Virus record (IMG/VR): IMGVR_UViG_3300024232_000001
Span: 1 to 59,383 of that record
DNA: 59,383 nucleotides
Origin: a virus
Strand: one strand, 5' to 3'
Every line of letters begins with the position of its first letter. The stretch's first letter is position 1. Made by a program: the position numbers and the translations under genes. Shown piece by piece: positions 1 through 51,713 of the stretch. The notes beneath the pieces were generated by a model that was not told the DNA's origin, made no database searches, and worked only from the letters and a program-made list of their open reading frames with translations.

Positions 1-127
1 GCGCGTCGACAGGGTTATGGCTCAGCTATCGAATCACTGCGTGCTGAGTACGCCAAATGGAAAGAATTGGGGACGCGCAAGATGTGGCTCTCGGAAGCCG
101 CCGACTGGCTTGAGAAAAATAGCCTTT
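1..127. repeat. Terminal direct repeat, copy 1 (identical to 59257..59383); indicates a circularly closed or terminally redundant contig
   Basis: Read directly: bases 1-127 recur base-for-base at 59257-59383; an ORF reads through the junction. Confidence 0.95.
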
Positions 128-129
128 AA
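1..129 (+). CDS. 3' end of the wrap-around ORF that starts at 59137 (hypothetical protein)
   Basis: Frame 1 is open from base 1 to TAA 127-129 and is the duplicate of 59257..59383. Confidence 0.6.
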   Translation, partial: ARRQGYGSAIESLRAEYAKWKELGTRKMWLSEAADWLEKNSL

Positions 130-144
130 CGGAGCTTAACAGAG

Positions 145-330
145 ATGGGCGACACTTTTGATATTGGCCCGGATGATATCGCCAGATATGTGCGCCAGAG
201 GTCAACAGGAGAGGTGGGGATGATCGTCCGGGACCCTGGCAATGGGTGGCTGCACCCATCTCAGAAGTATGAATGGGAAGCGTCCAGAGACGATTTTGAG
301 TACGTCACCATCCGGCCTGGCCGCCATTAA
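145..330 (+). CDS. hypothetical protein (61 aa)
   Basis: ORF track; preceded by TTAA-N6-TTAACAGAG element. Confidence 0.5.
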   Translation: MGDTFDIGPDDIARYVRQRSTGEVGMIVRDPGNGWLHPSQKYEWEASRDDFEYVTIRPGRH

Positions 331-351
331 TCAATTTTAGAGGAGATTACC

Positions 352-564
352 GTGGATTTAGAATTGCCCGATGCTGCCTTGGTAGCGGACGAGGTATTTG
401 ACGCGGGCCTAGATGCTGTGATGTTGGAGCCGAAGATTGCTCACATCCGCGCCAAGCTTACCGAACGCGAAATCCGTATGTTGACAGCGGTGATTGTCAC
501 GGCGACAGCAACCATAGCAACTCGCCAACTGGTCGCCGCACTATTCGCTTCTAAGTCAAGTTAA
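352..564 (+). CDS. hypothetical protein (70 aa), hydrophobic C-terminus
   Basis: GTG start 5 nt after TTAGAGGAGA; ORF track. Confidence 0.55.
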   Translation: MDLELPDAALVADEVFDAGLDAVMLEPKIAHIRAKLTEREIRMLTAVIVTATATIATRQLVAALFASKSS

Positions 565-577
565 AGGAGATCGTTCG

Positions 578-751
578 ATGTCAGATGCACAGTTGATCAT
601 GGAACTGAAAAGCCTTCGATACGCAATTGAGCGTCGTGCTCCAGTGCGGGGGTTATTCATGGTCGGGCTCATCGAGGGCATGGTTAGCGCCGTCGCGTAT
701 TTGCCGTGGATCGGCATCTTCTATCTGATGTACCGATATTTTCACTCTTAA
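578..751 (+). CDS. small membrane protein (57 aa)
   Basis: ATG 7 nt after TTAAAGGAGA; translated by hand, hydrophobic stretch LFMVGLIEGMVSAVAYLPWIGIFYL; too short for the ORF track. Confidence 0.5.
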   Translation: MSDAQLIMELKSLRYAIERRAPVRGLFMVGLIEGMVSAVAYLPWIGIFYLMYRYFHS

Positions 752-777
752 ACCGCGTTAAAGGAGAAAATGAAGTA

Positions 778-954
778 ATGAACATTTCGCAAGACGAGTT
801 CTCCGCCCTTTTCGCAATCCGAGAGGCCGCGTTACAGCTATCGGAGAGCATGGTGAACGCTGAAGCGTCGGGTGCCGACTTCGATGCTGTGGATAAGGAA
901 TGGCAATTCTTAACCGTCGCGCTTGAGCGGTATCGCGAAGCACGCCACCGTTAA
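778..954 (+). CDS. hypothetical protein (58 aa)
   Basis: In-frame ATG of ORF 706..954, downstream of TTAAAGGAGA (762-767). Confidence 0.5.
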   Translation: MNISQDEFSALFAIREAALQLSESMVNAEASGADFDAVDKEWQFLTVALERYREARHR

Positions 955-977
955 AGTCGATTAAAGGAGATCGAAAA

Positions 978-1577
978 ATGCCTACTGGATATACGAGCGA
1001 CGTTCGATCCGGCAAGATCACCGAGTTTCCTGACTTCGCGCTCCAATGCGCGCGGGCGTTCGGGGCGCTGATCGTAATGCGTGACGAGCCACACGACAAA
1101 CCTATCCCGAAGGCTTTTGAGCCTGAGACAAGCTACTACGATGAGCAGATTTCAAGGTCACAGGCGACCATCGCCGACCTTGGTTCTCTCTCGGACGCGG
1201 ACTGTGAGCGCCGCGCATTGGCGGCTCACGCCGATGCGGTAGAGGCGGTGCGTGCGCGTATTCACGAGCGCGAGGAGGATCGTGATCGGTACCAAGCAAT
1301 GGTAGCCAAGGTCGAGGCGTGGACCCCACCGACAGACGACCATGAAGAGATGAAAAACTTCATGCTTCAGCAGCTAAACGAATCCATCCGTTTCGACTGC
1401 ACCCCGTACGCTGACCTCGACAAAGAACCTGCGCTCCAATCTGGCCGGGAATGGCGCGAGGCTATGCTGGCTCAAGCCGCCCGCGACCTGTCCTATGGGT
1501 TAGAGCATCGGCAGCAAGAGATCGAGCGCACGAACAAGCGCAACCAGTGGCTGACCGATTTGCGCAATAGCCTTTAA
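978..1577 (+). CDS. hypothetical protein (199 aa)
   Basis: ORF track; TTAAAGGAGA 7 nt upstream. Confidence 0.7.
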   Translation: MPTGYTSDVRSGKITEFPDFALQCARAFGALIVMRDEPHDKPIPKAFEPETSYYDEQISRSQATIADLGSLSDADCERRALAAHADAVEAVRARIHEREEDRDRYQAMVAKVEAWTPPTDDHEEMKNFMLQQLNESIRFDCTPYADLDKEPALQSGREWREAMLAQAARDLSYGLEHRQQEIERTNKRNQWLTDLRNSL

Positions 1578-1599
1578 TGTCTCTTAAAGGAGAAACGCA

Positions 1600-1974
1600 A
1601 TGTCTGAAACACGCGAGTTCCCGACCGCTGTCATTGCCTCGATATCGACCGGCGTTTTGATGTGCGATTTCGGCGCCATGCACGAGGCCGCGGAATACCT
1701 CATGGGACACCCCATCTGGACGCACCATTTCGCCAACAAAGACCTGTGGCGCGATATGAAGCGGGCAATCACCAACCAGTGTCCCGGCATTCCTACCGAG
1801 ATCGAGGGCGTAACCAAGGACAACTATCTTCAGAAGGTCGCCGATCTGGTGGCAGAGGTCGGCCCTGTCCAGACGATCCGAAAAGGTGATGGCGTGACGG
1901 CGATGCTCCCGACTGACGGCATCCCGGATCACCTGAAGGAGAAGGCTATTATGATCGGCGTGGATCGCTGTTAA
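1600..1974 (+). CDS. hypothetical protein (124 aa)
   Basis: ORF track; TTAAAGGAGA upstream. Confidence 0.7.
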   Translation: MSETREFPTAVIASISTGVLMCDFGAMHEAAEYLMGHPIWTHHFANKDLWRDMKRAITNQCPGIPTEIEGVTKDNYLQKVADLVAEVGPVQTIRKGDGVTAMLPTDGIPDHLKEKAIMIGVDRC

Positions 1975-1996
1975 ATATCCTTAGAGGAGAGTTGTA

Positions 1997-2179
1997 ATGG
2001 CCTACAAAGAGAATACGGAAATCGGCGAGATTGCCATTCGGTTGATCCGTGAGCTGCGGGCGAAGGATGCCCTAGAGGCATACCAGATGATCGAGGTTCT
2101 GCACATCGCCACCGGGATAGCTAATCTTGAGATTCAGCGCGAAACCCGTGAGGCCGCAAAGCCCGTTAAAATAACCTAA
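1997..2179 (+). CDS. hypothetical protein (60 aa)
   Basis: ORF track; TTAGAGGAGA upstream. Confidence 0.6.
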   Translation: MAYKENTEIGEIAIRLIRELRAKDALEAYQMIEVLHIATGIANLEIQRETREAAKPVKIT

Positions 2180-2190
2180 AGGAGATTGCC

Positions 2191-2460
2191 TTGACCAACC
2201 AGCCCGAGAAGCCGCACTTCGATCGCATCATGCGTGTCGAGCGTGAGCGGTTAGAACGCGTCGATGATCTGAAGGCGCTGTGGGCCAGCGCCAAGGATGC
2301 GCTCGACAAGGACGCGCTGAAGGATTTGAAGGTCGCCGTGAGGCGTGCCCTAGCCGATCCTGACAAGCTCGCCGAGACCCGCGCGAGAGAGGACCGCGCT
2401 GACGCCTTGCTGGCGTCCATCGGACCGCTCGGTGAAGCTGCTGTGCGGGCTGCGCAATGA
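2191..2460 (+). CDS. hypothetical protein (89 aa), charged helical
   Basis: TTG start 5 nt after CTAAAGGAGA. Confidence 0.6.
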   Translation: MTNQPEKPHFDRIMRVERERLERVDDLKALWASAKDALDKDALKDLKVAVRRALADPDKLAETRAREDRADALLASIGPLGEAAVRAAQ

Positions 2461-2816
2461 TACAACCGCGCCGCATGGATCGGCCCCAGGTCGGTTATTG
2501 GCGCATGAGATTGACGCGCGGTGGTCCTTTCGTGGGTGCGTGCATCAAGTGGGTCCAGACAACATATGAGCCAGGAGAGCCAAATAACCTGATGGAGCGC
2601 TCGCCGTTCATGGTCGCACTGATCAGCGATGAGGTCGTGTCGATCGACCGAGTATGGCTGAGCCGCGGAGAACCGATATCGGAAGCAGAATACCGCTACC
2701 TATGCGCCTCAGTGGACTACGCAATGAAGCACGATCCTGGCGCACCTGAAGCAGACCCGACGAAACGAATTGATTTAGCGACGGCACAGCCCGTCTATCG
2801 GAGGAGACAAGCGTGA
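2457..2816 (+). CDS. hypothetical protein (119 aa)
   Basis: ATGA overlap with the upstream stop; ORF track. Confidence 0.6.
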   Translation: MIQPRRMDRPQVGYWRMRLTRGGPFVGACIKWVQTTYEPGEPNNLMERSPFMVALISDEVVSIDRVWLSRGEPISEAEYRYLCASVDYAMKHDPGAPEADPTKRIDLATAQPVYRRRQA

Positions 2817-3664
2817 GCGAGCGGAGGCTTGATATTGGCGGGAATAATCCACCGCCAGACCTGAAGATCGGCGAGGCGTTACGTGAGCAACTGACCGACG
2901 AGAATCGTGCGCTGATGAAGCGCCGCGACGAACTGATGGCGATGGCTGATGATTTCGATGCCGATTACCCGACCGTGGACGACGACGATGCGAGCGGCAT
3001 TCTTGCTGGCATCATCACCCAAATTACCAAGTCGAGCAAAGCCGCCGATCAGACGCGCGAAGCCGTCAAGGCTCCATACCTTGAGGGTGGACGAATCGTT
3101 GACGGCTTCTTCAATGGCGGCATCAAGACGCCGCTGGACAAGCGCGCGGCGGCTCTAAACACAAAGCAGACCGCCTATCAGCGCGCCAAAGCAGATCGCA
3201 TTCGACGTGAGGCGGAAGAGGCGGCTCGGAAGGCGCGCGAGGAAGAAGATGCGCGGCGCCGGGAGGCTGAGAAGGCCGAGCGTGAACGGCTTGCTGCTGA
3301 GCGTGCCGCACGGAAGGCCCGCGATGATGCGGACGCCTCGGAACTGGCACGGCTCCGCGCTGCCGATGCTGAGCGTCGCGCTGAGGAAGCCCGACAGGCC
3401 GAAGAACGCGCCCGCATTGAGCGACAGGAACAGGCGAGGATTGCGGCGTCATCCGCCGCTGATCGAAGCCGGGTACGGGGTGATTATGCAGTGTCGAGCC
3501 TCAGAACCACATGGTCATTCGAGGTCTTGGACATCGCAAAGGTTCCTCCTGAGTTTCTTCAGGTCAATCAGCCGCTAGTCAACGCCGCAATCCGTGGACA
3601 GAACGGACGGCGCGACATTCCTGGCCTTCATATTTTCGCGGTCGAGACCGCACAGAATAGGTGA
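2813..3664 (+). CDS. hypothetical protein (283 aa) with long R/E/A coiled-coil core
   Basis: GTGA overlap with the upstream gene; central ARKAREEEDARRREAEKAERERLAAERAARK low-complexity helix. Confidence 0.7.
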   Translation: MSERRLDIGGNNPPPDLKIGEALREQLTDENRALMKRRDELMAMADDFDADYPTVDDDDASGILAGIITQITKSSKAADQTREAVKAPYLEGGRIVDGFFNGGIKTPLDKRAAALNTKQTAYQRAKADRIRREAEEAARKAREEEDARRREAEKAERERLAAERAARKARDDADASELARLRAADAERRAEEARQAEERARIERQEQARIAASSAADRSRVRGDYAVSSLRTTWSFEVLDIAKVPPEFLQVNQPLVNAAIRGQNGRRDIPGLHIFAVETAQNR

Positions 3665-3667
3665 TCT

Positions 3668-4894
3668 ATGCCGGATAACCAGCAAGTCGCTACACGCCAG
3701 CCTTCACCCTTCGAGGTCGAGTTGGCGTCCTATGAGCCACAATTCGCTGCCGCCCTGCCGGGCCATATCCCGGTCGAACGCTTCAAGCGCACCGTCATCA
3801 CGGCGCTGAATGCGCAGCCTGATCTTATCAAAGCCGATCGCCGTTCGCTGTTCACGGCGTGCGTGCGTGCTGCCCAAGACGGCCTGTTCCCCGATGGCAG
3901 GGAAGCCGCGCTGGTCGTGTTCAATTCCAAGAACAAGAAGACTGGGGAATGGAACAAGCTCGTTCAGTACCTACCGATGGTCGGCGGCTTGATCAAGAGG
4001 ATGCGCAACAGCGGCGAACTTGCTGCGATTTCAGCCTACGTCGTGTTCTCGAATGACAACTTCGATTATGAGCTTGGCGACAATCCGAGCATCACGCACA
4101 AGCCGTGCATGGGCGATAGGGGGCAGCCGATCGGTATCTATGCCGTAGCCAAGCTGACTAACGGGGAAACCCTACGCGAGGTCATGTCGGTAAGTGAGGT
4201 CGAGAAGGTTAGGGCCATCAGTCGGGCGAAGGACGATGGTCCGTGGACCATCTGGTGGGAGGAAATGGCTAGGAAGACAGTCATTCGTAGACTGTCTAAG
4301 CGTCTTCCCGGCTCATCGGATATCGACGATATGCTGCGCCGGGAAGAGGAACAGTATAGACACTCTGAACCTTCAGTGCCCACTCGTCGCCCAACGCGGG
4401 AGATGTTTCGGGAGACACCGCTCATGGTCACGGATGTTCCTGATGAGAAGGACGATGCTCCGCATGATCCTGAAACGGGCGAAGTGCCCGAGGATGGGTT
4501 TGGGCTGAAACCTCTGTGCAACGTTCCATTGGTTGAGGCGGGCAACGCGAAATGTGAAGAAGGGCTTGCCGCTCTTGAGGAATGGTGGAAAGGACTCACG
4601 CCATCAGAACGCGGGGAGCTTGGCGCGAAGGGAAGAAGTGCAGGACCGCATTTGGAGGGCTGGAAAGTGCGAGCCAAAGCCGCTGATGAGCGTGGTGGCC
4701 CAGCGACGGAAGAGAGCCTGTCTGAGACCATCACCGCGGCCTTAGAGGCTGCTAAGGCGCCCGAAGACGTGGATGCTCTGGTTGCCGAGTATGCGGTTGC
4801 GCTGAACGAAATCCCGCACGAGGAGTGGCTACCGCTACAGGCTGCGATCGACGCACGGCGCGCTATGTTGGCGGGAGAACCGGTTCATGGCTAG
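3668..4894 (+). CDS. recT: RecT-family single-strand annealing recombinase with acidic C-terminal extension
   Basis: Residues 40-215 (SLFTACVRAAQDGLFPDGREAALV..., YLPMVGGLIKR, IYAVAKLTNGE, WWEEMARKTVIRRLSKRLP) match the RecT/Bet-type pattern as I remember it. Confidence 0.85.
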   Translation: MPDNQQVATRQPSPFEVELASYEPQFAAALPGHIPVERFKRTVITALNAQPDLIKADRRSLFTACVRAAQDGLFPDGREAALVVFNSKNKKTGEWNKLVQYLPMVGGLIKRMRNSGELAAISAYVVFSNDNFDYELGDNPSITHKPCMGDRGQPIGIYAVAKLTNGETLREVMSVSEVEKVRAISRAKDDGPWTIWWEEMARKTVIRRLSKRLPGSSDIDDMLRREEEQYRHSEPSVPTRRPTREMFRETPLMVTDVPDEKDDAPHDPETGEVPEDGFGLKPLCNVPLVEAGNAKCEEGLAALEEWWKGLTPSERGELGAKGRSAGPHLEGWKVRAKAADERGGPATEESLSETITAALEAAKAPEDVDALVAEYAVALNEIPHEEWLPLQAAIDARRAMLAGEPVHG

Positions 4895-5201
4895 GCAGCG
4901 CCGCTGTAAGTACGTCAATTGCCGGCGCACGCTGCGGCAGTACGCTGGCGAGGCTGAGGATGCGTTCATTGCCCGCACCACTTGCGACGATGCCTGCGCA
5001 GAGCAATGCAAGCGCGTCATCCGGTGGTCGTACGAGCCGAAGGACAAGGACTGGACGCGCGAGCGGGAGCAATGGCCAGAAGGCGTGCGCTTCGATAGCC
5101 TGTCGCTGGGCAGCGTGTACGGTCGGATTGCGCGCCCCGAGACGCACCGACCGTATGGCACGAGCGCGAGTTGGGCTGTCGGCGGAGGAAGCGATGTCTG
5201 A
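4887..5201 (+). CDS. hypothetical Cys-rich protein (104 aa)
   Basis: ORF track; overlaps the recT stop by 8 nt; CKYVNC...CDDACAEQC. Confidence 0.5.
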   Translation: MARQRRCKYVNCRRTLRQYAGEAEDAFIARTTCDDACAEQCKRVIRWSYEPKDKDWTREREQWPEGVRFDSLSLGSVYGRIARPETHRPYGTSASWAVGGGSDV

Positions 5202-5463
5202 GATGGTCGAGCGTGCTGCGCTAGCGGTTGCTCTGACGCGAGCGAAATACGGATGGCGATTGCCGGGTGATCGAGGCGGCAGGAAAGCAACTGCGCTTGA
5301 TTGCGAGATAGCCAAGGCGGCGATCGAGGCCACGCGCGAGCCTACCGAGGAGATGATTGAGGCGGCAGTCACCACCGACGCGGCAGAGCCGATCCATTTT
5401 GGTGCCTACGAAGCGACAGCAATGTGGCGTGCGATGATTGGCGCCGCTGTTAAGAATGCTTAA
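5194..5463 (+). CDS. hypothetical protein (89 aa)
   Basis: ATG at 5194 after GGAGGAAGCG, overlaps the upstream stop (ATGTCTGA); C-terminal part of ORF 4825..5463. Confidence 0.55.
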   Translation: MSEMVERAALAVALTRAKYGWRLPGDRGGRKATALDCEIAKAAIEATREPTEEMIEAAVTTDAAEPIHFGAYEATAMWRAMIGAAVKNA

Positions 5464-5475
5464 CGGAGATTGTAG

Positions 5476-5763
5476 ATGCATACGCGCACGATCCAAGTCC
5501 GAGAAGGCGATAACGTCGGCCCCATTGATTGGTCTCATCCGACCGCCAAGGATATGCCGTTGGAGTGGCGCGAAGCTGAGAAAGACCCCGATGGGTTCAC
5601 CTATAACGGGCGCACGATCATCCAAATCTGTATGTATGACGGCTGGCCATACTGGAAGCCAACGCCCGCCGTTAACTTCATAGGTCCGCTGAAAAGCGGA
5701 GAATGGAACTTCTTCGACAGCTATGGCGCTTCTCCAAACAGCGTCGAGCGGAAACGCTCCTAA
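5476..5763 (+). CDS. hypothetical protein (95 aa)
   Basis: ORF track; TTAACGGAGA upstream. Confidence 0.65.
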   Translation: MHTRTIQVREGDNVGPIDWSHPTAKDMPLEWREAEKDPDGFTYNGRTIIQICMYDGWPYWKPTPAVNFIGPLKSGEWNFFDSYGASPNSVERKRS

Positions 5764-5786
5764 ACTACGTTAACGGAGATTTAGTT

Positions 5787-6035
5787 GTGAACGAGGCTGA
5801 AAGCCAGATTTTGAATTGTCTGATCGATGCGGGCGACGACTTCGGCTATTTGTCGTTCGCGGACATCTCCAGCCGCACGGGTCTCGAACGCAAGATCGTA
5901 CGAAGAGCTTGCCGGGCATTGGCACGCAAAGGACTTGCAGCCTATGGTCGCGGCTTATTCAACGACGATGGAGAAGTCGCCGGCAGTGGATATACCGCTA
6001 CACGGCAGGCACGGTCCACCGTTAGTCATCATTAA
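5787..6035 (+). CDS. small winged-helix-like DNA-binding protein (82 aa)
   Basis: GTG 7 nt after TTAACGGAGA; SFADISSRTGLERKIVRRACRALARKGL resembles a wHTH recognition region. Confidence 0.5.
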   Translation: MNEAESQILNCLIDAGDDFGYLSFADISSRTGLERKIVRRACRALARKGLAAYGRGLFNDDGEVAGSGYTATRQARSTVSHH

Positions 6036-6047
6036 AGGAGAAGACGT

Positions 6048-6332
6048 ATGAGCCGTTACCCATCCGAAGGCGTTGCGAGATTTGACCAGCAATTTCGCGA
6101 GACAGAGGGAGGGCGCAATGAACGACTGCGCGAGACACGATTTAAGCGGAATATCGAATCGTTTCAGAGGTTGATCGCTGATCTTGCTTCCGAGGCTCTG
6201 GCTGATGAAGGGCCTGACTGGTCGCAAGAGGGATTGGACAAGCTCCGTGTCCGCGTCGCCAACGCCATCCCACCGGATATGTTGCCAGAGTGCTTCGCTC
6301 AATGGCGTGACCCGCCCGTCGTTCGCTCTTAA
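6048..6332 (+). CDS. hypothetical protein (94 aa)
   Basis: ORF track; TTAAAGGAGA upstream. Confidence 0.6.
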   Translation: MSRYPSEGVARFDQQFRETEGGRNERLRETRFKRNIESFQRLIADLASEALADEGPDWSQEGLDKLRVRVANAIPPDMLPECFAQWRDPPVVRS

Positions 6333-6390
6333 CGGCTATTAACGGATGAAAGATTCCTCGCCGCCTGGATTAAGCGCGGCATCACCAGAA

Positions 6391-6440
6391 GATAGGGGCG
6401 GTCCTGGGGGGATGTCGGATCGCCGGCTAACGCCCCTATC
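6391..6440 (+). other. Perfect 10-bp stem / 30-nt loop hairpin in a 123-nt non-coding gap of the early operon
   Basis: GATAGGGGCG (6391-6400) pairs with CGCCCCTATC (6431-6440); no U-tract follows. Confidence 0.5.
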
Positions 6441-6455
6441 GCCGGGAGAAACAGG

Positions 6456-6680
6456 ATGGCGACTAGGGCGGGATTCATGGTTGTTGACGGCAGGGTTCGT
6501 GGACACACGCAGCGTCACGACGGTAGTGAGTCGTTCTTTGAACTTGGGGAATTGTATCCCATGACCGAAGAGGCAGTATGCCGGCTTCTCTCACGTGCTT
6601 TTTCAGCAGGTGTTGCGTACCGCGCTAGAGACGTTTGGGCCGCATTGGCTGAGCATACCAATGAGATTGTGAACTATTAG
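6456..6680 (+). CDS. hypothetical protein (74 aa)
   Basis: ORF track; GGGAGAAACAGG before the ATG. Confidence 0.5.
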   Translation: MATRAGFMVVDGRVRGHTQRHDGSESFFELGELYPMTEEAVCRLLSRAFSAGVAYRARDVWAALAEHTNEIVNY

Positions 6681-6711
6681 TCCTTTATTTATCTTTAACG
6701 GAGATTGCCAA

Positions 6712-6945
6712 ATGAGTTCCCCTCAATGCGTATCCTGCCGCTGGTGGAACGGCGATAGGACATATGCCGCCGAAGCGTATGGAGAAAAAGATAAGCACGG
6801 CAAATGTTACCATATCGTCCCATCGCCTGCGCTTCCTGATGACTGGCCAGTTCGGCTCTATCCCGCAGGCATCAATGCATGGGTAGAGACCCGATATGAT
6901 TTTGCCTGTCGCGATTGGGAATCCTTTGCGAAGAAATCCTCTTAA
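6712..6945 (+). CDS. hypothetical Cys-containing protein (77 aa)
   Basis: ORF track; TTAACGGAGA upstream. Confidence 0.6.
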   Translation: MSSPQCVSCRWWNGDRTYAAEAYGEKDKHGKCYHIVPSPALPDDWPVRLYPAGINAWVETRYDFACRDWESFAKKSS

Positions 6946-6967
6946 ATTATCTTAAAGGAGATCGGGA

Positions 6968-7183
6968 ATGGGTTCTCATCTGCTACCCTGCCCGTGTTGT
7001 GGCGGCAGGGCTGTGTTCGGAGAGATCACCGACGATAGCGATTCCAACTTCGGCGGACATTTTATCACCTGTTCAGCGTGTGTGATAACGACGGATCTTC
7101 GATTTGCGTGCGGTGATGATCCGCTTCCGCTGTTGGCCGAACAATGGAACCGACGCGCGCCAATCACCTTGAATATAGATTAA
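6968..7183 (+). CDS. lar: Lar-family restriction-alleviation-like zinc-ribbon protein (71 aa)
   Basis: CPCCGG...ITCSAC two-CxxC layout and the tail LLAEQWNRRAP resemble Lar-family proteins; sits directly upstream of a DNA methyltransferase. Confidence 0.55.
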   Translation: MGSHLLPCPCCGGRAVFGEITDDSDSNFGGHFITCSACVITTDLRFACGDDPLPLLAEQWNRRAPITLNID

Positions 7184-7195
7184 CGGAGATTTAAG

Positions 7196-8311
7196 TTGAC
7201 CGTCCGCGTGATCCACGGCGACTGCCGCTCTGCCCTGGCCGACCTGCCAAGCGAGAGCGTGCATTGCTGCGTGACCAGCCCGCCGTACTACGGGCTGCGG
7301 GACTACGGCGTTGAGGGGCAGATCGGGCTTGAGGAAACGCCGGATGCCTACGTGGCCGAGATGGTCGCGGTGTTCCGCGAGGTCCGCCGCGTGTTACGCC
7401 CGGACGGGACGCTCTGGCTAAACATCGGAGACAGCTACGCCGGCAGCGGCAAGGGCAGCAACCCCGAAGCCGGAAAGCAGGCGACCAACAAAGGCTCACA
7501 GTCTGTCGGCGTCCTGTACGGGAAGACGGGAGAGACTGCGCGGCAGGCTGCTGTGACCAACGTCACACGCAAGACGTTCCGCGCTGGCAATCCCGAGAAG
7601 AACGGCGGCGCATCAAACCGGGACGGCATCGGAGCCGTAGGGGGCATCAAGGCCAAAGACCTGATCGGGATTCCGTGGATGCTGGCCTTTGCCCTCCGCG
7701 CCGATGGCTGGTGGCTACGCCAGGACATCATCTGGTCGAAGCCTAATCCCATGCCCGAGAGCGTCACTGACCGCTGCACCAAGGCGCACGAGTACCTGTT
7801 CATGCTCAGCAAGGGCACGAGGTACTACTACGATGCTGAGGCCATAGCAGAGCCGGCCATCTACTCGGGGCTTGCCAACCAAGACGCTAGCGGCTTCAAA
7901 AGCCCCACGTCATTCAACGGGAAGCACAAAGAAGGCTACCGGACCTCAGACAAGCAACGCGGTCACGGCCGACGCCACGCCGGCTTCAATGATCGGTGGG
8001 ACGCAATGACACGCGAGGAACAGTGCTCTGGCACGCGCAACAAGCGGTCGGTTTGGGAAGTGGCGACACAGCCGTTCCCTGACGCGCACTTCGCCACATT
8101 CCCGCCGTCGCTGATCGAGCCGTGCATCCTAGCCGGTTGCCCGAAGGGCGGAACAGTGCTCGACCCGTTCGGCGGCGCGGGAACAACTGGCTTGGTTGCT
8201 GATCGGCTAGAGCGCAGTGCCGTCCTGATCGAACTCAATCCGCAGTATGCCACGATGGCGCGCAACCGCATCTTCGACGACGCGCCGCTGTTCGCTGACG
8301 TGGCAGACTGA
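7196..8311 (+). CDS. DNA methyltransferase, beta-class N4-C/N6-A family (motif IV SPPY before motif I)
   Basis: VTSPPYYGLRDY near the N-terminus and VLDPFGGAGTTG near the C-terminus; TTG start after TTAACGGAGA. Confidence 0.9.
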   Translation: MTVRVIHGDCRSALADLPSESVHCCVTSPPYYGLRDYGVEGQIGLEETPDAYVAEMVAVFREVRRVLRPDGTLWLNIGDSYAGSGKGSNPEAGKQATNKGSQSVGVLYGKTGETARQAAVTNVTRKTFRAGNPEKNGGASNRDGIGAVGGIKAKDLIGIPWMLAFALRADGWWLRQDIIWSKPNPMPESVTDRCTKAHEYLFMLSKGTRYYYDAEAIAEPAIYSGLANQDASGFKSPTSFNGKHKEGYRTSDKQRGHGRRHAGFNDRWDAMTREEQCSGTRNKRSVWEVATQPFPDAHFATFPPSLIEPCILAGCPKGGTVLDPFGGAGTTGLVADRLERSAVLIELNPQYATMARNRIFDDAPLFADVAD

Positions 8312-8343
8312 ATCGCTGTTAAATCGGTTTAGAGGAGATCGCC

Positions 8344-8430
8344 GTGTGCGCTATGGTCATCGGGACTCTGAGCGGTATAGCGCTCGGCATGTTTGGCGTG
8401 TGGATTTTCGAGAGGTTATTCGGTGCCTGA
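8344..8430 (+). CDS. 28-aa hydrophobic peptide
   Basis: GTG 5 nt after TTAGAGGAGA; VCAMVIGTLSGIALGMFGVWIFERLFGA. Confidence 0.4.
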   Translation: MCAMVIGTLSGIALGMFGVWIFERLFGA

Positions 8431-10578: not shown

Positions 10579-11388
10579 TCAAAGCGTGGCTTGCCATGCT
10601 TGGAACGCGGCTTCAGTGCCATCCCCCCAGTCCCCGTCAATTGGACCCTTGTAGAAGCCCCTATCCTTGAACGCCTGCTGCAACATGCGGATCGCGGAGA
10701 GGATCGCGTCGTCGTTCGGTTGCATCGGGGACGGCAAAGGCTCAGGCTCGATCACTGGCGGAATAACAGGCGGCGCAGGCTGCGGCGATCCCATTTGGGC
10801 AAACTCGCCGCTGGCCATGAATTTATCGAACCACGCTTGTTTCGTGGCCGCTATGTCCGGCGTGTTGTTCCCAACCGCACGCAGCATCGCATCGAAACCC
10901 CCGCCGTGATAGCGGTCCACGATGTACGCGACACAGATCGCCATGCCTATGCTCGGATCGGTAATGCCGAGATCGGGATTGTCCATGATCTCAGGATGGC
11001 CTGATTTGGTCGCGTATCGCTGGTAGTTGCCCCGGCCCGTGATCTGAATGGCGTATCGACCCCGGAACTTGTAGCCGTCGCCCGGCTGCGTATTGCCGAG
11101 ACCGCGCCCGACATTGGTCAGACTGCCGTAGACGTGCTCGAAAAATATCTTGTCGTCAGCCTTGATCTCATCCAGTTCGGCATCGCTCAAGCCTGACACC
11201 CGGCTCCCGAACACCTGCCTGATCCGGTCGTTGGACGTATGGGCATAGCCCATCTCCACATACCCGAGCATGTTGCTTTCGCCCATCGCGATTGCGGCCA
11301 TGCCGGCGCGCGTCTCGGGGTCCGTGACGCCTTGCGCGTCGAGCGCCGCCCGAAGAGCATTTGCATATACGGGATTCGGATCAGCCAT
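10579..11388 (-). CDS. endolysin: GH19-type muramidase/chitinase-like domain plus C-terminal peptidoglycan-binding domain
   Basis: YKFRGRYAIQITGRGNYQRY (GH19-like) and MLQQAFKDRGFYKGPIDGDWGDGTEAAFQAWQ (PG_binding_1-like). Confidence 0.85.
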   Translation of the reverse strand: MADPNPVYANALRAALDAQGVTDPETRAGMAAIAMGESNMLGYVEMGYAHTSNDRIRQVFGSRVSGLSDAELDEIKADDKIFFEHVYGSLTNVGRGLGNTQPGDGYKFRGRYAIQITGRGNYQRYATKSGHPEIMDNPDLGITDPSIGMAICVAYIVDRYHGGGFDAMLRAVGNNTPDIAATKQAWFDKFMASGEFAQMGSPQPAPPVIPPVIEPEPLPSPMQPNDDAILSAIRMLQQAFKDRGFYKGPIDGDWGDGTEAAFQAWQATL

Positions 11389-12527: not shown

Positions 12528-12555
12528 CCGGTTCTCCCTTAATAACGCTTAGAGG

Positions 12556-45894: not shown

Positions 45895-46077
45895 AGTGGC
45901 GTTATATACAAGCGGGAATAGTGGCGAGTGGCGCATAGTGGCGCATGTTTCTATATTCGCGTAGCGCACACACATATAGGGAAAAATGCGGAAAACAGCG
46001 CCACTATGCGCCACTGTCAGGCTAAGTGATTGATTTGCATCAGGTGCGAGTGGCGCATGGGCCACTGATGCGCCACT
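45895..46077. repeat. Array of at least 8 copies of AGTGGCG(CAT) in both orientations around an AT-rich core; candidate replication origin (iterons) or pac/regulatory site
   Basis: Forward copies at 45895, 45920, 45927, 45937, 46049; reverse copies at 45999, 46006, (46061), 46068; an 18-bp inverted repeat 45927-45944 / 45998-46015 flanks a 53-bp AT-rich spacer. Confidence 0.8.
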
Positions 46078-47554
46078 ATTCCGGTCCCGTATGGGCGAAC
46101 TCAGGCTTGATTGCGACGCCCTTGCGATACCGTTTTCCGGCCGTTCCCTTGTATGCGGTGATGTCCTTTTCGTCCAATTTCTCGCCGAAGGTTTTGCCCG
46201 TAACCGCTGTCTCGCCATTATCCGCGCACCATTGCTTGTAGGCTGTGAACAGCTCACCGAAGGGCGCGGTATAGTTGGCGTGGAGGTCGCAGCGATCGGC
46301 GAGAAATCCGATGAGCAAATCCTGCGCTTCGCGATATGCGTTGGTTGCGGCTTGAACGGCCTCTGGCATCATCAGACCGATCTCTTGCCACTCGATACAG
46401 CCGCGCACGATTGACGCAAGGATGCCGGGTTGTTCGGTTACGAGCGTTTCTTTGAGGCGATCATCTTTGACTGGATCGCCTAACTCGGCTTTCTCCGGGT
46501 CCAGGAATGTCACCGCGAACGGCAGAAGGCGGATGCGGCGCCAAATGCCGTTGTCGGTACCGCGAATGCGGGGCTTGTGATTGGTGGCAAGCCATAACTT
46601 GAACTTGGGCAGAAACTCGAAAAACTCATGATGCAGGTAGCGAGCCGCCATGCGATCTCCGCCCGTCGCCTGCTTAACCAGCCCTTCGGCGAGGCGCCGT
46701 TCCTGGTCGGTCTCGACGACAGATACGAGGCGGGCGCCAGCTAGGCGGGCGATATCGTTGGACATGCCCCCGCCTTTGTCCTTCATCGCAAAGGTCTCGG
46801 ACGGGCACTGGCGGGTGTAGTCGGCAAGGATCGAGGCCACGGTTTCGAGCAGGACCGATTTTCCGTTTGATCCGCATCCGTGAAGGATGAAAATCACATG
46901 TTCGCGCGTGATGCCGGTCAGCGAATATCCGAGTGCGCGCTGGGTAAAGCGCACGAGATCATCGTCGCCGGCAAAAATCTCTGACATGAAACGATCCCAG
47001 GTGGGGCAGAGCGCGTCCGGTTCGTAGGGAACAGGGGACAACTTGGTTATCAGATCGGCTTGACGATGCGAGCGAATCGAGCCGGTTCTCAGATCGATCG
47101 TGCCGTTGGCGCAATTGAACAGCCACGGGTCGGTATCAAGATCGTCGGAGGTGATGGCGAGGTGCGGTGCAGCCTGCTCCATCATCCCCTTGAGGCGCGT
47201 CGAGTAACCTGACGATATCGCCCATTTGGCGCGGTTCTCAGCAGCCTTCTTGTCGGCCAGCGATGCTATCTCGGCAAAGATCGCTTTGGCTGTCTGTTGA
47301 GCAAACCGCTTGACCGCAACATCGCCGCTATCGATCGCCCATCGCTTGCCGTCCCACACATGCCAGCCGACGTTGACGACATATACCAGCAGGTGCCCGA
47401 AGCGATCGATGAGCCGCTTCGCATTGCCGATGTCGTTCTGTTCGTAGGCGCAGAGCTGCGCGTCTAAATCCTGGCCGTTGCGGTGCTGCTGGTATCTGAC
47501 CGCCGAAGGGTCGGTTACGGACTTTGGCGAAGATCGAGGGGCAATGCCGATCAT
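46076..47554 (-). CDS. P4-family phage/plasmid primase C-terminal domain / D5-like SF3 helicase
   Basis: DTDPWLFNCANGTIDLRTG...HVIFILHGCGSNGKSVLLE (Walker A)...RLVSVVETDQ. Confidence 0.85.
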   Translation of the reverse strand: MIGIAPRSSPKSVTDPSAVRYQQHRNGQDLDAQLCAYEQNDIGNAKRLIDRFGHLLVYVVNVGWHVWDGKRWAIDSGDVAVKRFAQQTAKAIFAEIASLADKKAAENRAKWAISSGYSTRLKGMMEQAAPHLAITSDDLDTDPWLFNCANGTIDLRTGSIRSHRQADLITKLSPVPYEPDALCPTWDRFMSEIFAGDDDLVRFTQRALGYSLTGITREHVIFILHGCGSNGKSVLLETVASILADYTRQCPSETFAMKDKGGGMSNDIARLAGARLVSVVETDQERRLAEGLVKQATGGDRMAARYLHHEFFEFLPKFKLWLATNHKPRIRGTDNGIWRRIRLLPFAVTFLDPEKAELGDPVKDDRLKETLVTEQPGILASIVRGCIEWQEIGLMMPEAVQAATNAYREAQDLLIGFLADRCDLHANYTAPFGELFTAYKQWCADNGETAVTGKTFGEKLDEKDITAYKGTAGKRYRKGVAIKPEFAHTGPE

Positions 47555-48646: not shown

Positions 48647-48683
48647 GAACTGCCGTTAATCTCGCCTAGAGGAGATTCAGACC

Positions 48684-48935
48684 ATGACCGCGACAGCCTT
48701 TACCTTGAATGAGCATCGGCATCTGATGGGCCTGGAACACAAGTACGTCATGCGCGCGTCTACCTCGCGCGTTGTTGGCGGCGAAGTGGATACCCTGCTG
48801 GGTCTGACGAAGCGCGGCCTTGTTGAGGCTCTCCCCGACCCCAAGTTTCCCGGCACGGTGGATATTTTCATCACGAGCGCGGGCCGCGAGGCACTGGCAG
48901 GCGATATCATTTATCGCGAAAGCGATAGCCTTTAA
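48684..48935 (+). CDS. hypothetical protein (83 aa)
   Basis: ORF track; CTAGAGGAGA upstream. Confidence 0.6.
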   Translation: MTATAFTLNEHRHLMGLEHKYVMRASTSRVVGGEVDTLLGLTKRGLVEALPDPKFPGTVDIFITSAGREALAGDIIYRESDSL

Positions 48936-48956
48936 TCATAGTTAAGGGAGAGGAAA

Positions 48957-49623: not shown

Positions 49624-49845
49624 ATGTGCGATTGTGTTCACCGCATAAACGCCGGTCTCGCCAAGAGCGAGTTCCCGAATACGATGGTCGAATATCCTCT
49701 GTTCGGTGAGCCGGTCACATTCGTCCTGACGTGCAAGCGCGAGGAAAAGGTCCGACAGAAGCCCAAACGTGTGTTTGCAACCTACTGTCCGTTCTGCGGC
49801 GTAAAATATTCCAAACCGGAAGCTATGCCCTTTAATCCGTCTTAA
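49624..49845 (+). CDS. small zinc-ribbon-like protein (73 aa)
   Basis: In-frame ATG 49624; MCDC...CPFCG. Confidence 0.55.
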   Translation: MCDCVHRINAGLAKSEFPNTMVEYPLFGEPVTFVLTCKREEKVRQKPKRVFATYCPFCGVKYSKPEAMPFNPS

Positions 49846-49857
49846 GGGAGATTTGAA

Positions 49858-50246: not shown

Positions 50247-50554
50247 CGAAATCCGCCGCAGATAAAATTGCCGCAGAACTGGCCACTGAACGCCTACGGC
50301 AAATCAGAGACGAAGGATGGTCCGCTGACCATGATGACGAACATGGCCGAGGCGTGCTTCCCAAAGCGGCAATGAGCTATTGTCAGTCAGCCTCGGTCGG
50401 CCTGATAGATACGAGTATTTTAGCAGGCAAGCCCCCCACCTATTGGCCGTGGGACGCGAAGTGGTGGAAACCAAAGACGGCGCGGCGTGACTTGGTTCGC
50501 GCTGGCGCGCTCATTATCGCCGAGATTGAGCGGCTAGATCGGGAAACCCCTTAA
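50243..50554 (+). CDS. hypothetical protein (103 aa), conserved-looking EGW..DHDDEH...WPW..KWWKP pattern
   Basis: ORF track; ATGA coupling; function not assignable by eye. Confidence 0.6.
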   Translation: MTKSAADKIAAELATERLRQIRDEGWSADHDDEHGRGVLPKAAMSYCQSASVGLIDTSILAGKPPTYWPWDAKWWKPKTARRDLVRAGALIIAEIERLDRETP

Positions 50555-50576
50555 GGCAGATTAAAGGAGTTTTGAA

Positions 50577-50897
50577 ATGCCGTTCGACGGAACTAATCTT
50601 GACGAAACGACCAAAACGTTGATCGAGGCTCGTCGCATCCTAATCGATTATGGTTGGTGCGTTGGGAATCTAGTGCAGAACGATGGGCGCCATTGCGCAA
50701 TGGGAGCCATCAATGCCGCGATGGGTCATCATGTAAACGCGGCAGGCCCTGCCTATGGTAGCGAGGCGGAGAAACGCCTTTTGAAGGTGCTCCCCCAAAA
50801 ATGGCTCGGTCAGTGCATTCCATCCTTCAACAACGCTCAGGATACGGTAGAGCCTGTGATTGCGCTATTTGACCGCGCCATCGCAAACAGCCCTTAA
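50577..50897 (+). CDS. hypothetical protein (106 aa)
   Basis: ORF track; YGWCVGNLVQNDGRHCAMGAINAA. Confidence 0.6.
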   Translation: MPFDGTNLDETTKTLIEARRILIDYGWCVGNLVQNDGRHCAMGAINAAMGHHVNAAGPAYGSEAEKRLLKVLPQKWLGQCIPSFNNAQDTVEPVIALFDRAIANSP

Positions 50898-50917
50898 GCA
50901 GATTTAACGGCGATTCG

Positions 50918-51046
50918 ATGGCCCTCAAATTCTGGCAGATCGTCAGCACGCTGTCACGGCCTCTGGCCTATCGTGGATGGTCTGCCCTCTATTGGTACGC
51001 GATCGGCCAGCGGAATGCCCGAGGCGATTTCGGGTTTCCCTGTTAG
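50918..51046 (+). CDS. possible 42-aa peptide
   Basis: ATG after TTAA-N6-TTAACGGCGA; weak SD. Confidence 0.3.
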   Translation: MALKFWQIVSTLSRPLAYRGWSALYWYAIGQRNARGDFGFPC

Positions 51047-51067
51047 GTCTTGTTAACGGAGAGAGAC

Positions 51068-51244
51068 GTGACGAGAGATGAACTCAAAACATTGCGCGCC
51101 AGGACCGCTGATAGGCCGGTGCAGGAGTTGCTGGACGTGTTCGATGCGGCGGTCTCGTGGGTCAACGATTGGGATGACACCAAACCAGGGCAGCATACGA
51201 TCGAGCGGCAGCTCTTCGATCTCGTCAAAAGCACGCAGCCTTAA
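51068..51244 (+). CDS. hypothetical protein (58 aa)
   Basis: GTG 5 nt after TTAACGGAGA. Confidence 0.5.
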   Translation: MTRDELKTLRARTADRPVQELLDVFDAAVSWVNDWDDTKPGQHTIERQLFDLVKSTQP

Positions 51245-51258
51245 CGGAGGATCGAACG

Positions 51259-51336
51259 ATGCAGATGTACCACCAAGGACGCTGGTTCTGGGTCGAGCGT
51301 TTCACCGGTCGAGGCTGGTCGTTCTGGTCGTGGTGA
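51259..51336 (+). CDS. possible 25-aa Trp-rich peptide
   Basis: ATG after TTAACGGAGG; MQMYHQGRWFWVERFTGRGWSFWSW. Confidence 0.25.
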   Translation: MQMYHQGRWFWVERFTGRGWSFWSW

Positions 51337-51368
51337 TCGCCTTTATCTGACATTAAAGGAGGAATGAA

Positions 51369-51713
51369 ATGTGTGTGATGTCCGTGATCGGCGACCATTA
51401 TGGACGCAAATGGGACCGAGATTTTGATGTCTATAAGCGGCGCCCATTCGTGCTGACGCCAATCCCCATGCCGGCGCCATTCCCAGCGATTACTCGCGAG
51501 GAGTTTGACGCCTTGAGGCAAGAGGTTTTGGAGATGAAGCGCCTTCTTCAGAACGCGAAGGAGATCGATGAAACGACGGGTCAGGCCCCGTGCGATGACG
51601 CTGAGAAGATGGCGCTGCTGCGGAAGATCGCTGAGGCTGTCGGCATCAGTATGTATGGACGATGTGCTCGGTCAGAAGACCCTATAAATACCGTTAAAGG
51701 AGATCGCCCGTGA
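51369..51713 (+). CDS. hypothetical protein (114 aa)
   Basis: ORF track; TTAAAGGAGG upstream. Confidence 0.6.
   Translation: MCVMSVIGDHYGRKWDRDFDVYKRRPFVLTPIPMPAPFPAITREEFDALRQEVLEMKRLLQNAKEIDETTGQAPCDDAEKMALLRKIAEAVGISMYGRCARSEDPINTVKGDRP

Follow-up and report, generated by a model that had tools for sequence, protein, structure and literature searches.

A bipartite sequence element, YTAR-N6-YTAR-NGGAGA, characterizes three transcription units of accessory genes (about 20 kb) in the 59,383-nt viral sequence analysed here (the window), and the six bases between its two boxes are specific to the position of each junction and kept between related phages. We consider it plausible, if somewhat short of an even chance, that the element is a stop/restart adaptor for translation and that it also anchors recombination, slot by slot, when cassettes are exchanged.

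Against a shuffled-sequence control of the window, the full motif gave 24 exact matches where 0.02 were expected, and YTARNGGAGA gave 31 where 0.73 were expected. Within the accessory arms, TTAA-Nk-TTAA occurs 19 times at N6, once at N7 and at no other k from 0 to 15, and YTAR-N6-YTAR occurs 33 times, compared with 0–4 at other spacings. The layout that the initial annotation reported in front of genes is thus real, and stronger than it was described. The window consensus is ATCnCCnTTAA-N6-TTAAnGGAGAt; among the window sites, conditioned on the two boxes only, positions beyond the boxes are also fixed (C at −13, Y at −12, R at +5 and G at +6, each 32/32). Across lineages, T-A-R is the only invariant part of both boxes, and the first base of the box depends on the genome (T, C, G or A). 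In class I junctions a GGAG(A) Shine–Dalgarno sequence is fused to the second box; in class II junctions it lies inside N6.

The element had been called genome-wide, but all copies except one (12533–12552) are confined to 48.6–59.3 kb and 0.1–8.4 kb, which form one contiguous arm because of a 127-nt terminal repeat in the window. Nearly all gene junctions of this arm carry the paired stops. In a gene-anchored count, with no conditioning on boxes, TAR-N7-TAR lies at most 49 nt upstream of 28 of the 56 arm genes, with one-base or N5 variants in front of a further 5; the other arm genes overlap the upstream gene or stand first in an operon. None of the 44 genes of the minus-strand replication/structural block has TAR-N7-TAR upstream (random windows, 2.7%). 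The position of the element is the end of an upstream open reading frame (ORF): the operon-first genes at 48392 and 58270 have no copy in front, and copies follow last genes or precede long gaps (57111, 55214 and 6329).

The first junction, at 126–147 on the plus strand, is class II (TTAA-cggagc-TTAA-cagag-ATG), and its N6 is also found in a relative, L256. Class I junctions on the same strand lie at 327–346 (N6 tcaatt, common to L256, L260 and L262), 551–570 (gtcaag), 748–767 (accgcg), 951–970 (agtcga), 1574–1593 (tgtctc), 1971–1990 (atatcc), 2166–2185 (aataac, proximal box CTAA), 5450–5469 (gaatgc), 5760–5779 (actacg), 6022–6041 (tcatca), 6942–6961 (attatc) and 8319–8338 (atcggt, following a methylase stop); at 551, 5450 and 6022 the upstream stop is the proximal TAA. 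The last of these junctions had been assigned to a start near 8344; the junction stands, and GTG at 8346 is the more likely start. Also on the plus strand are an orphan copy at a gene end (6329–6342, N6 cggcta, degenerate Shine–Dalgarno GGATG) and two junctions with degenerate distal boxes, TTAT at 6685–6704 (N6 ttatct) and TGAA at 7170–7189 (tataga). The sole copy in the minus-strand block, at 12533–12552 on that strand, adjoins small accessory ORFs.

From 48.6 kb onwards, plus-strand class I junctions occur at 48656–48675 (tctcgc), 48932–48951 (tcatag), 49832–49851 (tccgtc), 50551–50570 (ggcaga, Shine–Dalgarno GGAGT), 51043–51062 (gtcttg, distal box TTAG), 51684–51703 (ataccg, distal box ATAA), 52418–52437 (ttgttt), 53470–53489 (cagcac) and 54138–54157 (gccttt). 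Variants on this strand comprise a junction with a weak Shine–Dalgarno GGCGA before a 42-codon ORF not called as a gene (50894–50913), a lone box fused to a Shine–Dalgarno sequence, TTAACGGAGG, before a 25-codon micro-ORF (51241–51250), a junction with the degenerate distal box TTAT (51343–51362, N6 ctgaca), TTAA-tatgta-TTAG fused to GAGAGG (52904–52923) and TTAA-gtttgc-TTAA-AAGGAGA (54390–54410). Both five-base spacers noted initially are genuine, TTAA-ttgtt-TTAGAGGAGA at 52088–52106 and TTAA-tgttg-TTAGAGGAGA at 52703–52721, all on the plus strand; the first had been placed one base off, at 52089, and its spacer is nearly that of the neighbouring junction at 52418. An orphan copy at a gene end (55214–55227, plus strand, N6 aggaca) lies 3 nt 5′ of the −35 box of the int promoter, an arrangement that recurs in L256, L261 and phage 2, and another, at 57111–57124 (N6 tcacga/tcgtga), is common to two convergent gene ends. 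The leftward operon, on the minus strand, has class I junctions at 57374–57393 (ttgcgc, a perfect palindrome with 10-nt arms), 57606–57625 (ggcgct) and 57804–57823 (tagaat), and a further minus-strand junction follows the Cro-like gene (57937–57956, degenerate distal box CTAT, no called gene next). Two more class II junctions, on the plus strand, are TTAA-gaggat-TTAA-cagat-ATG at 58953–58974 and TTAA-ggagca-TTAA-ag-GTG at 59121–59139; at these and at 126, NGGAGA is missing after box 2.

One of the boxes is the actual upstream stop at about 85% of junctions; the counts are about 23–26 of 32 in the window and 21 of 26 in phage 2. Intergenic gap lengths peak at 11–15 nt and 21–26 nt. TAA makes up 52% of stops in the arms versus 16% in the other block, in which TGA accounts for 64%, and some copies have a triple box that closes all three frames. 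The interpretation in the initial annotation is partly supported. Among the roles put forward there, a two-frame stop trap before re-initiation fits best, given the T-A-R invariance, the use of boxes as stops and the triple boxes; a translational enhancer of the T7 gene-10/epsilon type is not supported, as the likeness to TTAACTTTA is at chance level and the geometry is different. Counting against a stop/restart reading are the strict N6, given that spacings of 4, 7 or 13 nt could separate frames equally well, and the complete avoidance in the boxes of TGA, the commonest stop of the genome.

Selection on the box pair at the nucleotide level, beyond a stop and a Shine–Dalgarno sequence, had also been proposed, and the evidence agrees. 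The spacing is strict, and the boxes are kept where neither is the upstream stop (junctions whose distal box is not that stop are indeed present), where no gene follows, as at the three confirmed orphan copies, and where the Shine–Dalgarno sequence shifts into N6. The element is also conserved in five other phages.

We compared the window with five metagenomic relatives that have the same junction architecture. N6 varies among the junctions of one genome and is the same at the matching junction of related phages. Between the window and L256, 107 of 108 N6 bases match at 18 syntenic junctions, with their order preserved, whereas identity outside −13 to +9 is about 0.28, which is the random level, and the proteins flanking these junctions show no homology. 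A blastn comparison between unrelated genes matches only the junctions (24–49 bp). Collinear N6 hexamers in common with the window number 7 for L260 and 6–7 for L262, and L260 and L262 have 9 in common; fewer than 0.6 are expected by chance. Identity at the four-fold sites of int is only 68%, so that neutral retention of N6 has a P of about 4 × 10^-17. Mosaic breakpoints coincide with element edges: L210 has homology blocks of 99% and 89% with both edges exactly at element edges, the 99% block starting at the orphan copy at 6329 and an L210 block stopping past the GGAGA of the junction at 6685. The gene for a DUF7736 protein occupies another slot in L210. The restriction to accessory arms, the slot specificity of what had been taken for a free spacer and the coincidence with mosaic breakpoints were all overlooked in the initial annotation.

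As an adaptor and anchor, the element would form the boundary of each exchangeable cassette in the accessory-gene array of a temperate phage. At the mRNA level, its TAA/TAG pair, lying in two different frames because the stops are spaced exactly 10 nt apart, would end any incoming ORF, and GGAG(A), fused to the second stop (class I) or between the stops (class II), would restart translation 11–26 nt downstream. Such a coupling device would allow the serial expression of promoterless small genes, whatever their origin. At the DNA level, the 14-nt core (box, N6, box) is the sole sequence common to unrelated cassettes, and to related phages at the matching position; it may be the crossover point for cassette exchange, as an active mediator rather than a mere survivor of recombination. 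Genes would be replaced there most likely by short-homology recombination through phage annealing proteins, with the phage's own RecT or ERF, plus an exonuclease and RusA, as the candidate machinery. N6 differences within a genome would limit ectopic deletion, and N6 identity at corresponding junctions of relatives would keep exchange in register. No phage protein family that tracks the motif was found in the available sequence, which counts in favour of this reading. The constancy of the dyad flanks and the genome-specific box style count against this reading and hint at a trans-acting binder. An anchor of 14–20 bp is also short for known RecT/Red-type recombination, and selection that conserved N6 because it keeps cassettes exchangeable would be second-order. 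Known junction elements of this sort are SAS, PeSL and pdif.

The last of these underlies the main rival, a rather unlikely one in our estimation, in which the junctions are dif/pdif-like site-specific recombination sites. A tyrosine recombinase, either the Xer-like integrase of the phage or host XerCD, would be bound by the arms, which are palindromic in their inner part (CYnTTAA / TTAAnRG) and reach about 11 nt; N6 would be the central crossover region, in which partner sites must match, and exchange would occur solely between junctions with the same address, with stops and Shine–Dalgarno sequences overlaid on the arms. In dif/pdif sites, laid out as 11-6-11, the inner arms are palindromic and the outer arms and 6-bp centre vary (PMC6449649); the window consensus fits this geometry, and the 6-nt spacing is strict. 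Covariation between the arms of a single site is absent, which makes each half-site independent of the other. Phages agree in N6, and the degenerate arm positions −11, −12 and +4 follow the flanking cassette, the pattern expected if exchange took place at the borders of a central region; arm style is genome-specific where N6 is slot-specific. Avoidance of TGA would be expected if the arms were read as sequence rather than codons, copies stand at module ends without a downstream gene, and it was through its Xer-like integrase that each locus with the motif was recovered. However, the motif is missing from three phages whose integrases belong to this family (50–55% identity), the integrase apparently has its own tRNA-type attP (55319–55345), and a protein family confined to phages with the motif was not found. 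By inspection, of the 11 positions of the XerD consensus TTATGTTAAAT the right arm fits only about 6, and L260 and L262, with boxes GTAA/CTAA...CTAA/TTAG, show a decayed palindrome. The sites are all directly oriented, whereas pdif sites alternate, and the slots between which the DUF7736 cassette moved differ in N6.

It is improbable that the element is instead an operator-like site of a dimeric DNA-binding regulator, or the target of a sequence-specific RNA-binding translational repressor, through which a host- or phage-encoded factor would silence the accessory arms in the manner of stoperators or repress many genes. The dyad symmetry and fixed spacing of the core suit such a site, as do the limitation to three transcription units, the copy beside the int −35 box in four phages and a box style particular to each genome; L5 stoperators, cited in PMC3203893 as sitting in short intergenic spaces, offer a precedent. 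Regulation leaves unexplained, however, why a slot-specific N6 is kept between phages while both neighbouring genes change. The likely switch operator beside the Cro-like gene, GCAAGCG-N7-CGCTTGC, is dissimilar, the palindrome is gone in L260 and L262, and a search for a co-occurring regulator family found none.

We give very little credence to an RNA hairpin in which the left arm pairs with the Shine–Dalgarno-bearing right arm, either masking it until the upstream ribosome opens the structure or forming an RNase processing site. The arms are complementary in the consensus and the upstream stop falls inside the putative 5′ arm, but this reading is already disfavoured by folding, pairing and covariation tests: mean minimum free energy z-scores are −0.35 (32 window sites) and −0.52 (26 phage-2 sites), pairs −11:+4 and −14:+7 are at or below chance pairing, and no pair covaries within sites. 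Arm complementarity is also gone in L260 and L262, and Rfam returned no match. Least credible, with a probability close to negligible, are CtrA-type boxes through which the host cell-cycle regulator would act on phage genes: the boxes are TTAA dyads, GapR-domain genes in the relatives hint at an alphaproteobacterial host and CtrA-type control is reported in phages of Alphaproteobacteria (PMC9437464), but the known box is TTAA-N7-TTAA, against an almost exclusive N6 here, the sites lie between co-directional ORFs rather than in promoter gaps, and the relatives have GTAA, ATAA and CTAA boxes. Tests of a sigma-70 promoter or a terminator as the identity of the element gave no support.

For the arms of these phages, the comparison of sequences suggests that the junctions are built-in docking points for the swapping of gene cassettes.

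The element consists of two YTAR-type boxes, distal and proximal, separated by six nucleotides (N6) and combined with a Shine–Dalgarno sequence. We found 24 exact copies of YTAR-N6-YTAR-NGGAGA in the window, where dinucleotide shuffles give an expectation of 0.02, and 31 copies of the proximal half alone (YTARNGGAGA; 0.73 expected). Spacing is strict. In the arms, the accessory-gene stretches at 48.6–59.3 kb and 0.1–8.4 kb that carry nearly all copies, TTAA-Nk-TTAA, examined over k = 0–15, occurs 19 times with k = 6, once with k = 7 and otherwise never; the degenerate YTAR pair occurs 33 times at N6 and 0–4 times at other spacings. The paired boxes are thus enriched over shuffled controls, and the observation in the initial annotation is real. 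Its description of the element as genome-wide has to be narrowed, as copies are confined to three transcription units (48.4–57.1 kb, plus strand; 58.2–57.1 kb, minus strand; and 58.3 kb to 8.9 kb across the origin, plus strand), and the 39-kb minus-strand block has one, at 12533–12552. Using independent computational gene calls from the source contig (ENA ERZ27256721; Logan SRR7686991) and no conditioning on boxes, we found TAR-N7-TAR ≤49 nt upstream of 28 of the 56 arm genes. One-base or N5 variants precede five more, and the rest either begin within the upstream gene or stand first in their operons. The pattern is upstream of none of the 44 ORFs of the long minus-strand block and occurs in 2.7% of random windows. 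Across this phage group there are about 40 copies per genome, of one architecture throughout.

The window is a circular metagenomic assembly with an exact direct terminal repeat of 127 nt (1–127 and 59257–59383) and a unit of 59,256 bp, in which the two motif-rich ends form one contiguous arm. The phage is temperate and encodes an integrase, RecT and an exonuclease, a methylase, an HNH nuclease, a RusA-like resolvase and a Cro-like HTH protein. An Acb2/Tad1-like protein (53498–53752, hairpin domain PF24729) is encoded inside the cassette array, and the arrays probably carry anti-defence genes. The minus-strand block carries structural genes and a P4-type primase: 46076–47554 (minus strand), considered as a terminase, has a 492-aa product of the P4/D5 primase type with 40% identity to the phi105 primase, so the block that is otherwise free of the element also holds replication genes. 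The integrase gene, int, has a strong promoter at 55231–55260 (TTGACA-18-TAGAAT), the spacer of which contains a TCTAG-N7-CTAGA palindrome (55237–55255) that may be a repressor site. Between this promoter and the int start codon lies a tRNA 3′-end-like sequence, GGGTTCGAGCCCCGTCGCGAGGCACCA (55319–55345), probably the attP core, at which ARAGORN reports no complete tRNA. A 21-nt inverted repeat (57828–57848 and 57918–57938; 90% complementary, arms 69 nt apart) follows the Cro-like gene, and a palindrome unlike the junction element, GCAAGCG-N7-CGCTTGC (~58195–58215), lies in the divergent region between that gene and the rightward operon and is a candidate switch operator. The window and its twin contig L121 (99.8% identical) differ at 20 positions, all of them within 133 bp of a minus-strand gene outside the arms (10690–10822), which looks like a local recombination event or a hypervariable patch.

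Conservation runs on upstream when sites are anchored on the proximal box. Among window sites conditioned on the two boxes only, C at −13, Y at −12, R at +5 and G at +6 are each present in 32 of 32, resulting in a 20-bp dyad, CYnTTAA-N6-TTAAnRG, with weaker ATC/GAT outside. Class I copies have one base after the second box and then the Shine–Dalgarno sequence GGAGA; class II copies (126, 58953 and 59121), which are frequent in the relative L260, have the Shine–Dalgarno sequence within N6 and the start codon 2–5 nt past the second box. As first proposed, the distal box is often, not always, the stop codon of the upstream ORF (~16–19 of 32 window junctions; the proximal box in ~7 and an earlier stop in ~4). 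The corresponding counts in phage 2, a metagenomic relative, are 8, 13 and 3. Because the upstream ORF usually ends inside the element, intergenic gaps bunch at 11–15 nt and 21–26 nt. The orphan copies of the initial annotation are also real: the element stands behind last genes, or behind genes that precede a long gap, and no gene comes next (57111, 55214 and 6329), and the operon-first genes 48392 and 58270 have none in front. The element therefore tracks the ORF end, or junction, and not starts as such. TGA is the default stop of the window genome, yet there are no TGA boxes. Systematic third-frame closure was not significant (16/32 against 37% expected). A 25-codon micro-ORF at 51259–51336, uncalled by the source pipeline, lies behind a single box fused to a Shine–Dalgarno sequence (51241–51250). 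Inside recT there is also a junction-like palindrome, CCTTAGaggctgCTAAGG (4740–4757), which is translated in frame into sense codons and probably arose by chance.

Searched at the nucleotide level, GenBank phages gave no relative, just a methylase fragment. Relatives were found through pattern scans and integrase homologues, and all are metagenomic fragments of 1.5–30 kb. The same architecture occurs in five other metagenomic phages, so related phages keep the paired boxes at the N6 spacing and not the Shine–Dalgarno sequence alone, which bears out the initial suggestion. A 15-base pattern scan of viral contigs gave mostly AT-rich chance matches, but uncovered phage 2 (IMGVR_UViG_3300037845_000036), which has 26 copies of TTAA-N6-TTAA and none at other spacings, the consensus CCGTTAA-N6-TTAA(A)GG and a variable distance to the start codon. 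L256, with an integrase 94% identical to that of the window, has ~20 copies; L260, L261 and L262 (integrases 45–57% identical) share the architecture, and L210 is a 1.5-kb fragment with the element. Other contigs lack it: L257–L259, with integrases of the same family, and L120 and L123–L125, which were found through a 199-aa protein. The latter show that the element does not simply reflect how similar phages or hosts build ribosome-binding sites in general. No protein family was both present in all element-bearing loci and absent from element-less relatives within the ~10–30 kb available per relative; the only family in all element-bearing loci was the integrase, which element-less relatives also have. 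Two scans of genome contigs found no prophage, and GapR-domain genes hint at an alphaproteobacterial host.

In the relatives, TAR-N7-TAR precedes 54–79% of array genes, compared with 4–6% of random windows. Box style is uniform within a genome and differs between genomes (TTAA..TTAA/TTAG in the window and L256, CTAA..TTAG in L260, cTGTAA/GTAG..CTAA in L262), which points either to concerted evolution of the element's arms or to a co-evolving binding factor. The boxes of L260 and L262 (CTAA, ATAA or GTAA(G), then TTAG or CTAA) retain only T-A-R as invariant and form a weaker palindrome, and some of their junctions have three boxes at a 10-nt phase, providing stops in all three frames. Phage 2 (contigs L179, L018 and L035) has several tandem DUF6197-like paralogues (MPLDGT.../MPFDG...) with a junction element before each; the window has one homologue (50577–50897).

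The N6, which is slot-specific, is not a free spacer. Eighteen window junctions pair with junctions of L256 in conserved order, and their N6 sequences are identical at 107 of 108 bases. Per-position identity is ~1.0 over −13 to +9 and falls to ~0.28, the random level, from −14 upstream and from +10 downstream; the degenerate arm positions are less conserved than the N6 (0.33 at −11, 0.67 at −12 and 0.61 at +4). Between the junctions there is no DNA similarity, with blastn matches limited to the junctions themselves (24–49 bp), and almost no protein similarity; syntenic neighbour proteins gave no blastp match even at E ≤10. The homologous genes are well diverged: four-fold sites of int are only 68% identical, so neutral retention of the N6 has P ~4e-17. 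Collinear hexamers in more distant phages include gaggat, ggagca, tcaatt, accgcg, agtcga and atatcc, and the window shares seven with L260 and six to seven with L262, which share nine with each other (<0.6 expected by chance). Targeted literature searches gave no match for a conserved, slot-specific hexamer whose neighbouring genes on either side have turned over completely, and we know of no earlier description.

Mosaic breakpoints coincide with the element. L210 contains one block 99% identical to window 6329–6704 and another 89% identical to window 1584–1957, both with edges exactly at element edges, and its DUF7736 gene is relocated to another slot. At two places in the window, neighbouring junctions with one gene between them have almost identical N6 sequences (52088–52106 and 52418–52437, ttgtt/ttgttt; 6685–6704 and 6942–6961, ttatct/attatc), and look like a junction duplicated by cassette insertion.

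These data fit an element that is the junction unit of a cassette array, with two layers of function. At the level of translation, the two-frame stops would end any arriving ORF and the Shine–Dalgarno sequence would restart the next one, a reading that fits the T-A-R invariance, the position at ORF ends, the class II layout, the triple-box copies and the fact that either box can be the real stop. At the level of recombination, the box-N6-box core may act as the crossover point: the common architecture would permit occasional ectopic moves, and the slot-specific N6 would hold exchange between phages in register and curb deletions inside a genome. Among the array genes are those for exonucleases, RusA and an annealing protein, RecT or ERF. 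This combination of stop/restart adaptor and recombination anchor does not account for the strict 6-nt length, the absence of TGA boxes, the dyad flanks or the genome-specific arms.

Because these four features are otherwise unexplained, we consider dif/pdif-like sites for site-specific recombination to be a serious rival. The pdif sites and dif modules of Acinetobacter plasmids (PMC6449649, PMC13141974) are likewise numerous short sites with two arms and a 6-bp centre that flank small accessory modules, and pdif modules are shuffled between replicons. The window consensus has the same 28-bp 11-6-11 layout (PMC6449649): its inner arms are palindromic and its 6-bp centre varies. The integrases are Xer-like, and Int matches the XerA/C/D models at ~E 1e-20, far below the model cut-offs. 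However, the layout is weaker in L260 and L262, in which the palindrome decays, integrase relatives exist without the element, and the integrase seems to have a separate tRNA-type attP. The arms also fit the Xer consensus poorly: the XerD-arm consensus TTATGTTAAAT and the XerC arm ...CATAA are absent, TTAAAGGAGAT agrees at ~6 of 11 positions by inspection, and only the inner TAA|N6|TTA is common to both. Unlike pdif sites, the junctions lie in direct, not alternating, orientation and the right arm doubles as a Shine–Dalgarno sequence; a recombinase role is a candidate here, and the search of ~10–30 kb per relative yielded no element-specific protein family to fill it. We think it rather unlikely that this temperate-phage group has a dedicated, address-coded system of cassette exchange, in which dif-like slot sites are double-coded as stops and ribosome-binding sites, a Xer-type recombinase acts on them and the N6 is the matching address. 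If it does, a phage or host Xer-type recombinase would read the arms, the 6-bp centres would have to match between partners, and phages could trade unrelated genes, anti-defence genes among them, strictly in register and without deletions; the two-frame stops and ribosome-binding site would let any incoming gene be expressed at once.

Other readings fare worse. An integron is excluded by an IntI-type integrase score (TIGR02249) of 38 bits against a cut-off of 265, and an attC site by its 57–141-bp imperfect palindrome, compared with 20–28 nt here, where the RYYYAAC ... GTTRRRY core sites do not occur in that order; the likeness to attC is in placement only, at the 3′ end of each promoterless ORF. 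An RNA hairpin was rejected, as mean MFE z-scores are −0.35 (window) and −0.52 (phage 2), −11:+4 and −14:+7 pair at or below chance, and there is no within-site covariation. The epsilon enhancer of T7 gene 10 lies upstream of the Shine–Dalgarno sequence and is complementary to 16S rRNA; the suggested resemblance to that leader did not hold up, with no exact copy of TTAACTTTA and three one-mismatch copies against 2.0 expected. Rfam families and tRNAs gave no match. The CtrA box, a TTAA-N7-TTAA dyad (PMC9437464), requires a spacing at which there is one copy, compared with 19 at N6.

The element appears to work most like three known systems, among them pdif modules and the SAS/ESAS repeats of Cluster K mycobacteriophages (Pope et al. 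2011, PMC3203893), but belongs to none: each has a defining test, of sequence or of composition, that the element fails. It has in common with SAS/ESAS, the function of which remained unproven as of 2025 (PMC12699233), a short repeated sequence with a Shine–Dalgarno core directly upstream of start codons, in a single orientation; both keep to the non-structural half of the genome of a temperate siphophage. In both, the upstream stop sometimes falls inside the repeat, conservation extends beside genes of different families, and the inverted repeats lack compensatory changes. However, the 13-nt SAS consensus GGGATAGGAGCCC (≤2 mismatches, 3–7 nt upstream of starts) occurs three times against 1.3 expected, never at gene starts. 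Stop boxes paired at a constant 10-nt phase are missing from SAS, which also has no described slot-specific conserved spacer or breakpoint role, and the ESAS spacer varies from 4 to 13 bp.

The PeSL regulatory cassettes of T4-type phages (Arbiol et al. 2010, PMC2839356; PMC4122927) also recur between genes, each spanning the interval from the upstream stop codon to the Shine–Dalgarno sequence and start codon of the next gene. They cluster in hyperplastic regions rich in small ORFans and, like the element, bound insertions, deletions and replacements between related phages, with PeSL recombination shuffling modules. They consist of σ70 promoters and terminator stem-loops of ~50–70 bp, whereas the element spans 20–28 nt, would work at the level of translation and carries a position-specific hexamer without a stable stem. 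A σ70 promoter/terminator cassette is ruled out, as promoter-like sites number six and seven against 3.7 and 4.4 expected, with none at junctions, and terminator-like sites are below expectation. PMC3203893 cites the stoperators of Cluster A mycobacteriophages (L5 gp71), which similarly number ~30, follow the direction of transcription and lie in the short gaps between genes of a temperate phage. In that account they are repressor-bound asymmetric 13-mers over both genome arms, with no link given to stop codons or Shine–Dalgarno sequences; the 13-mer GGTGGMTGTCAAG occurs twice in the window (2.4 expected).

Our findings may throw light on the mycobacteriophage SAS/ESAS repeats. The element suggests a compact design rule for the serial expression of arbitrary small genes, two- or three-frame stops followed by a Shine–Dalgarno sequence, which could serve synthetic operons, and offers a sequence handle for fast-turnover accessory and anti-defence cassettes in metagenomes.

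Phage mosaicism has been disputed for decades, with conserved boundary linkers set against random illegitimate joins filtered by selection. In the modular theory of Susskind and Botstein, short conserved linkers at boundaries allow non-homologous modules to exchange in register; such linkers have, to our knowledge, rarely been found, and mosaicism is usually put down to illegitimate recombination followed by selection. In this phage group, the linkers are explicit, repeated and of one shared architecture, with a position-specific hexamer that stays constant while the neighbouring genes are unrelated, and blocks of homology end there. The question of mosaicism thereby becomes testable: one can measure directly where the crossovers fall, what the N6 does and whether RecT/ERF or a Xer-type recombinase is needed.
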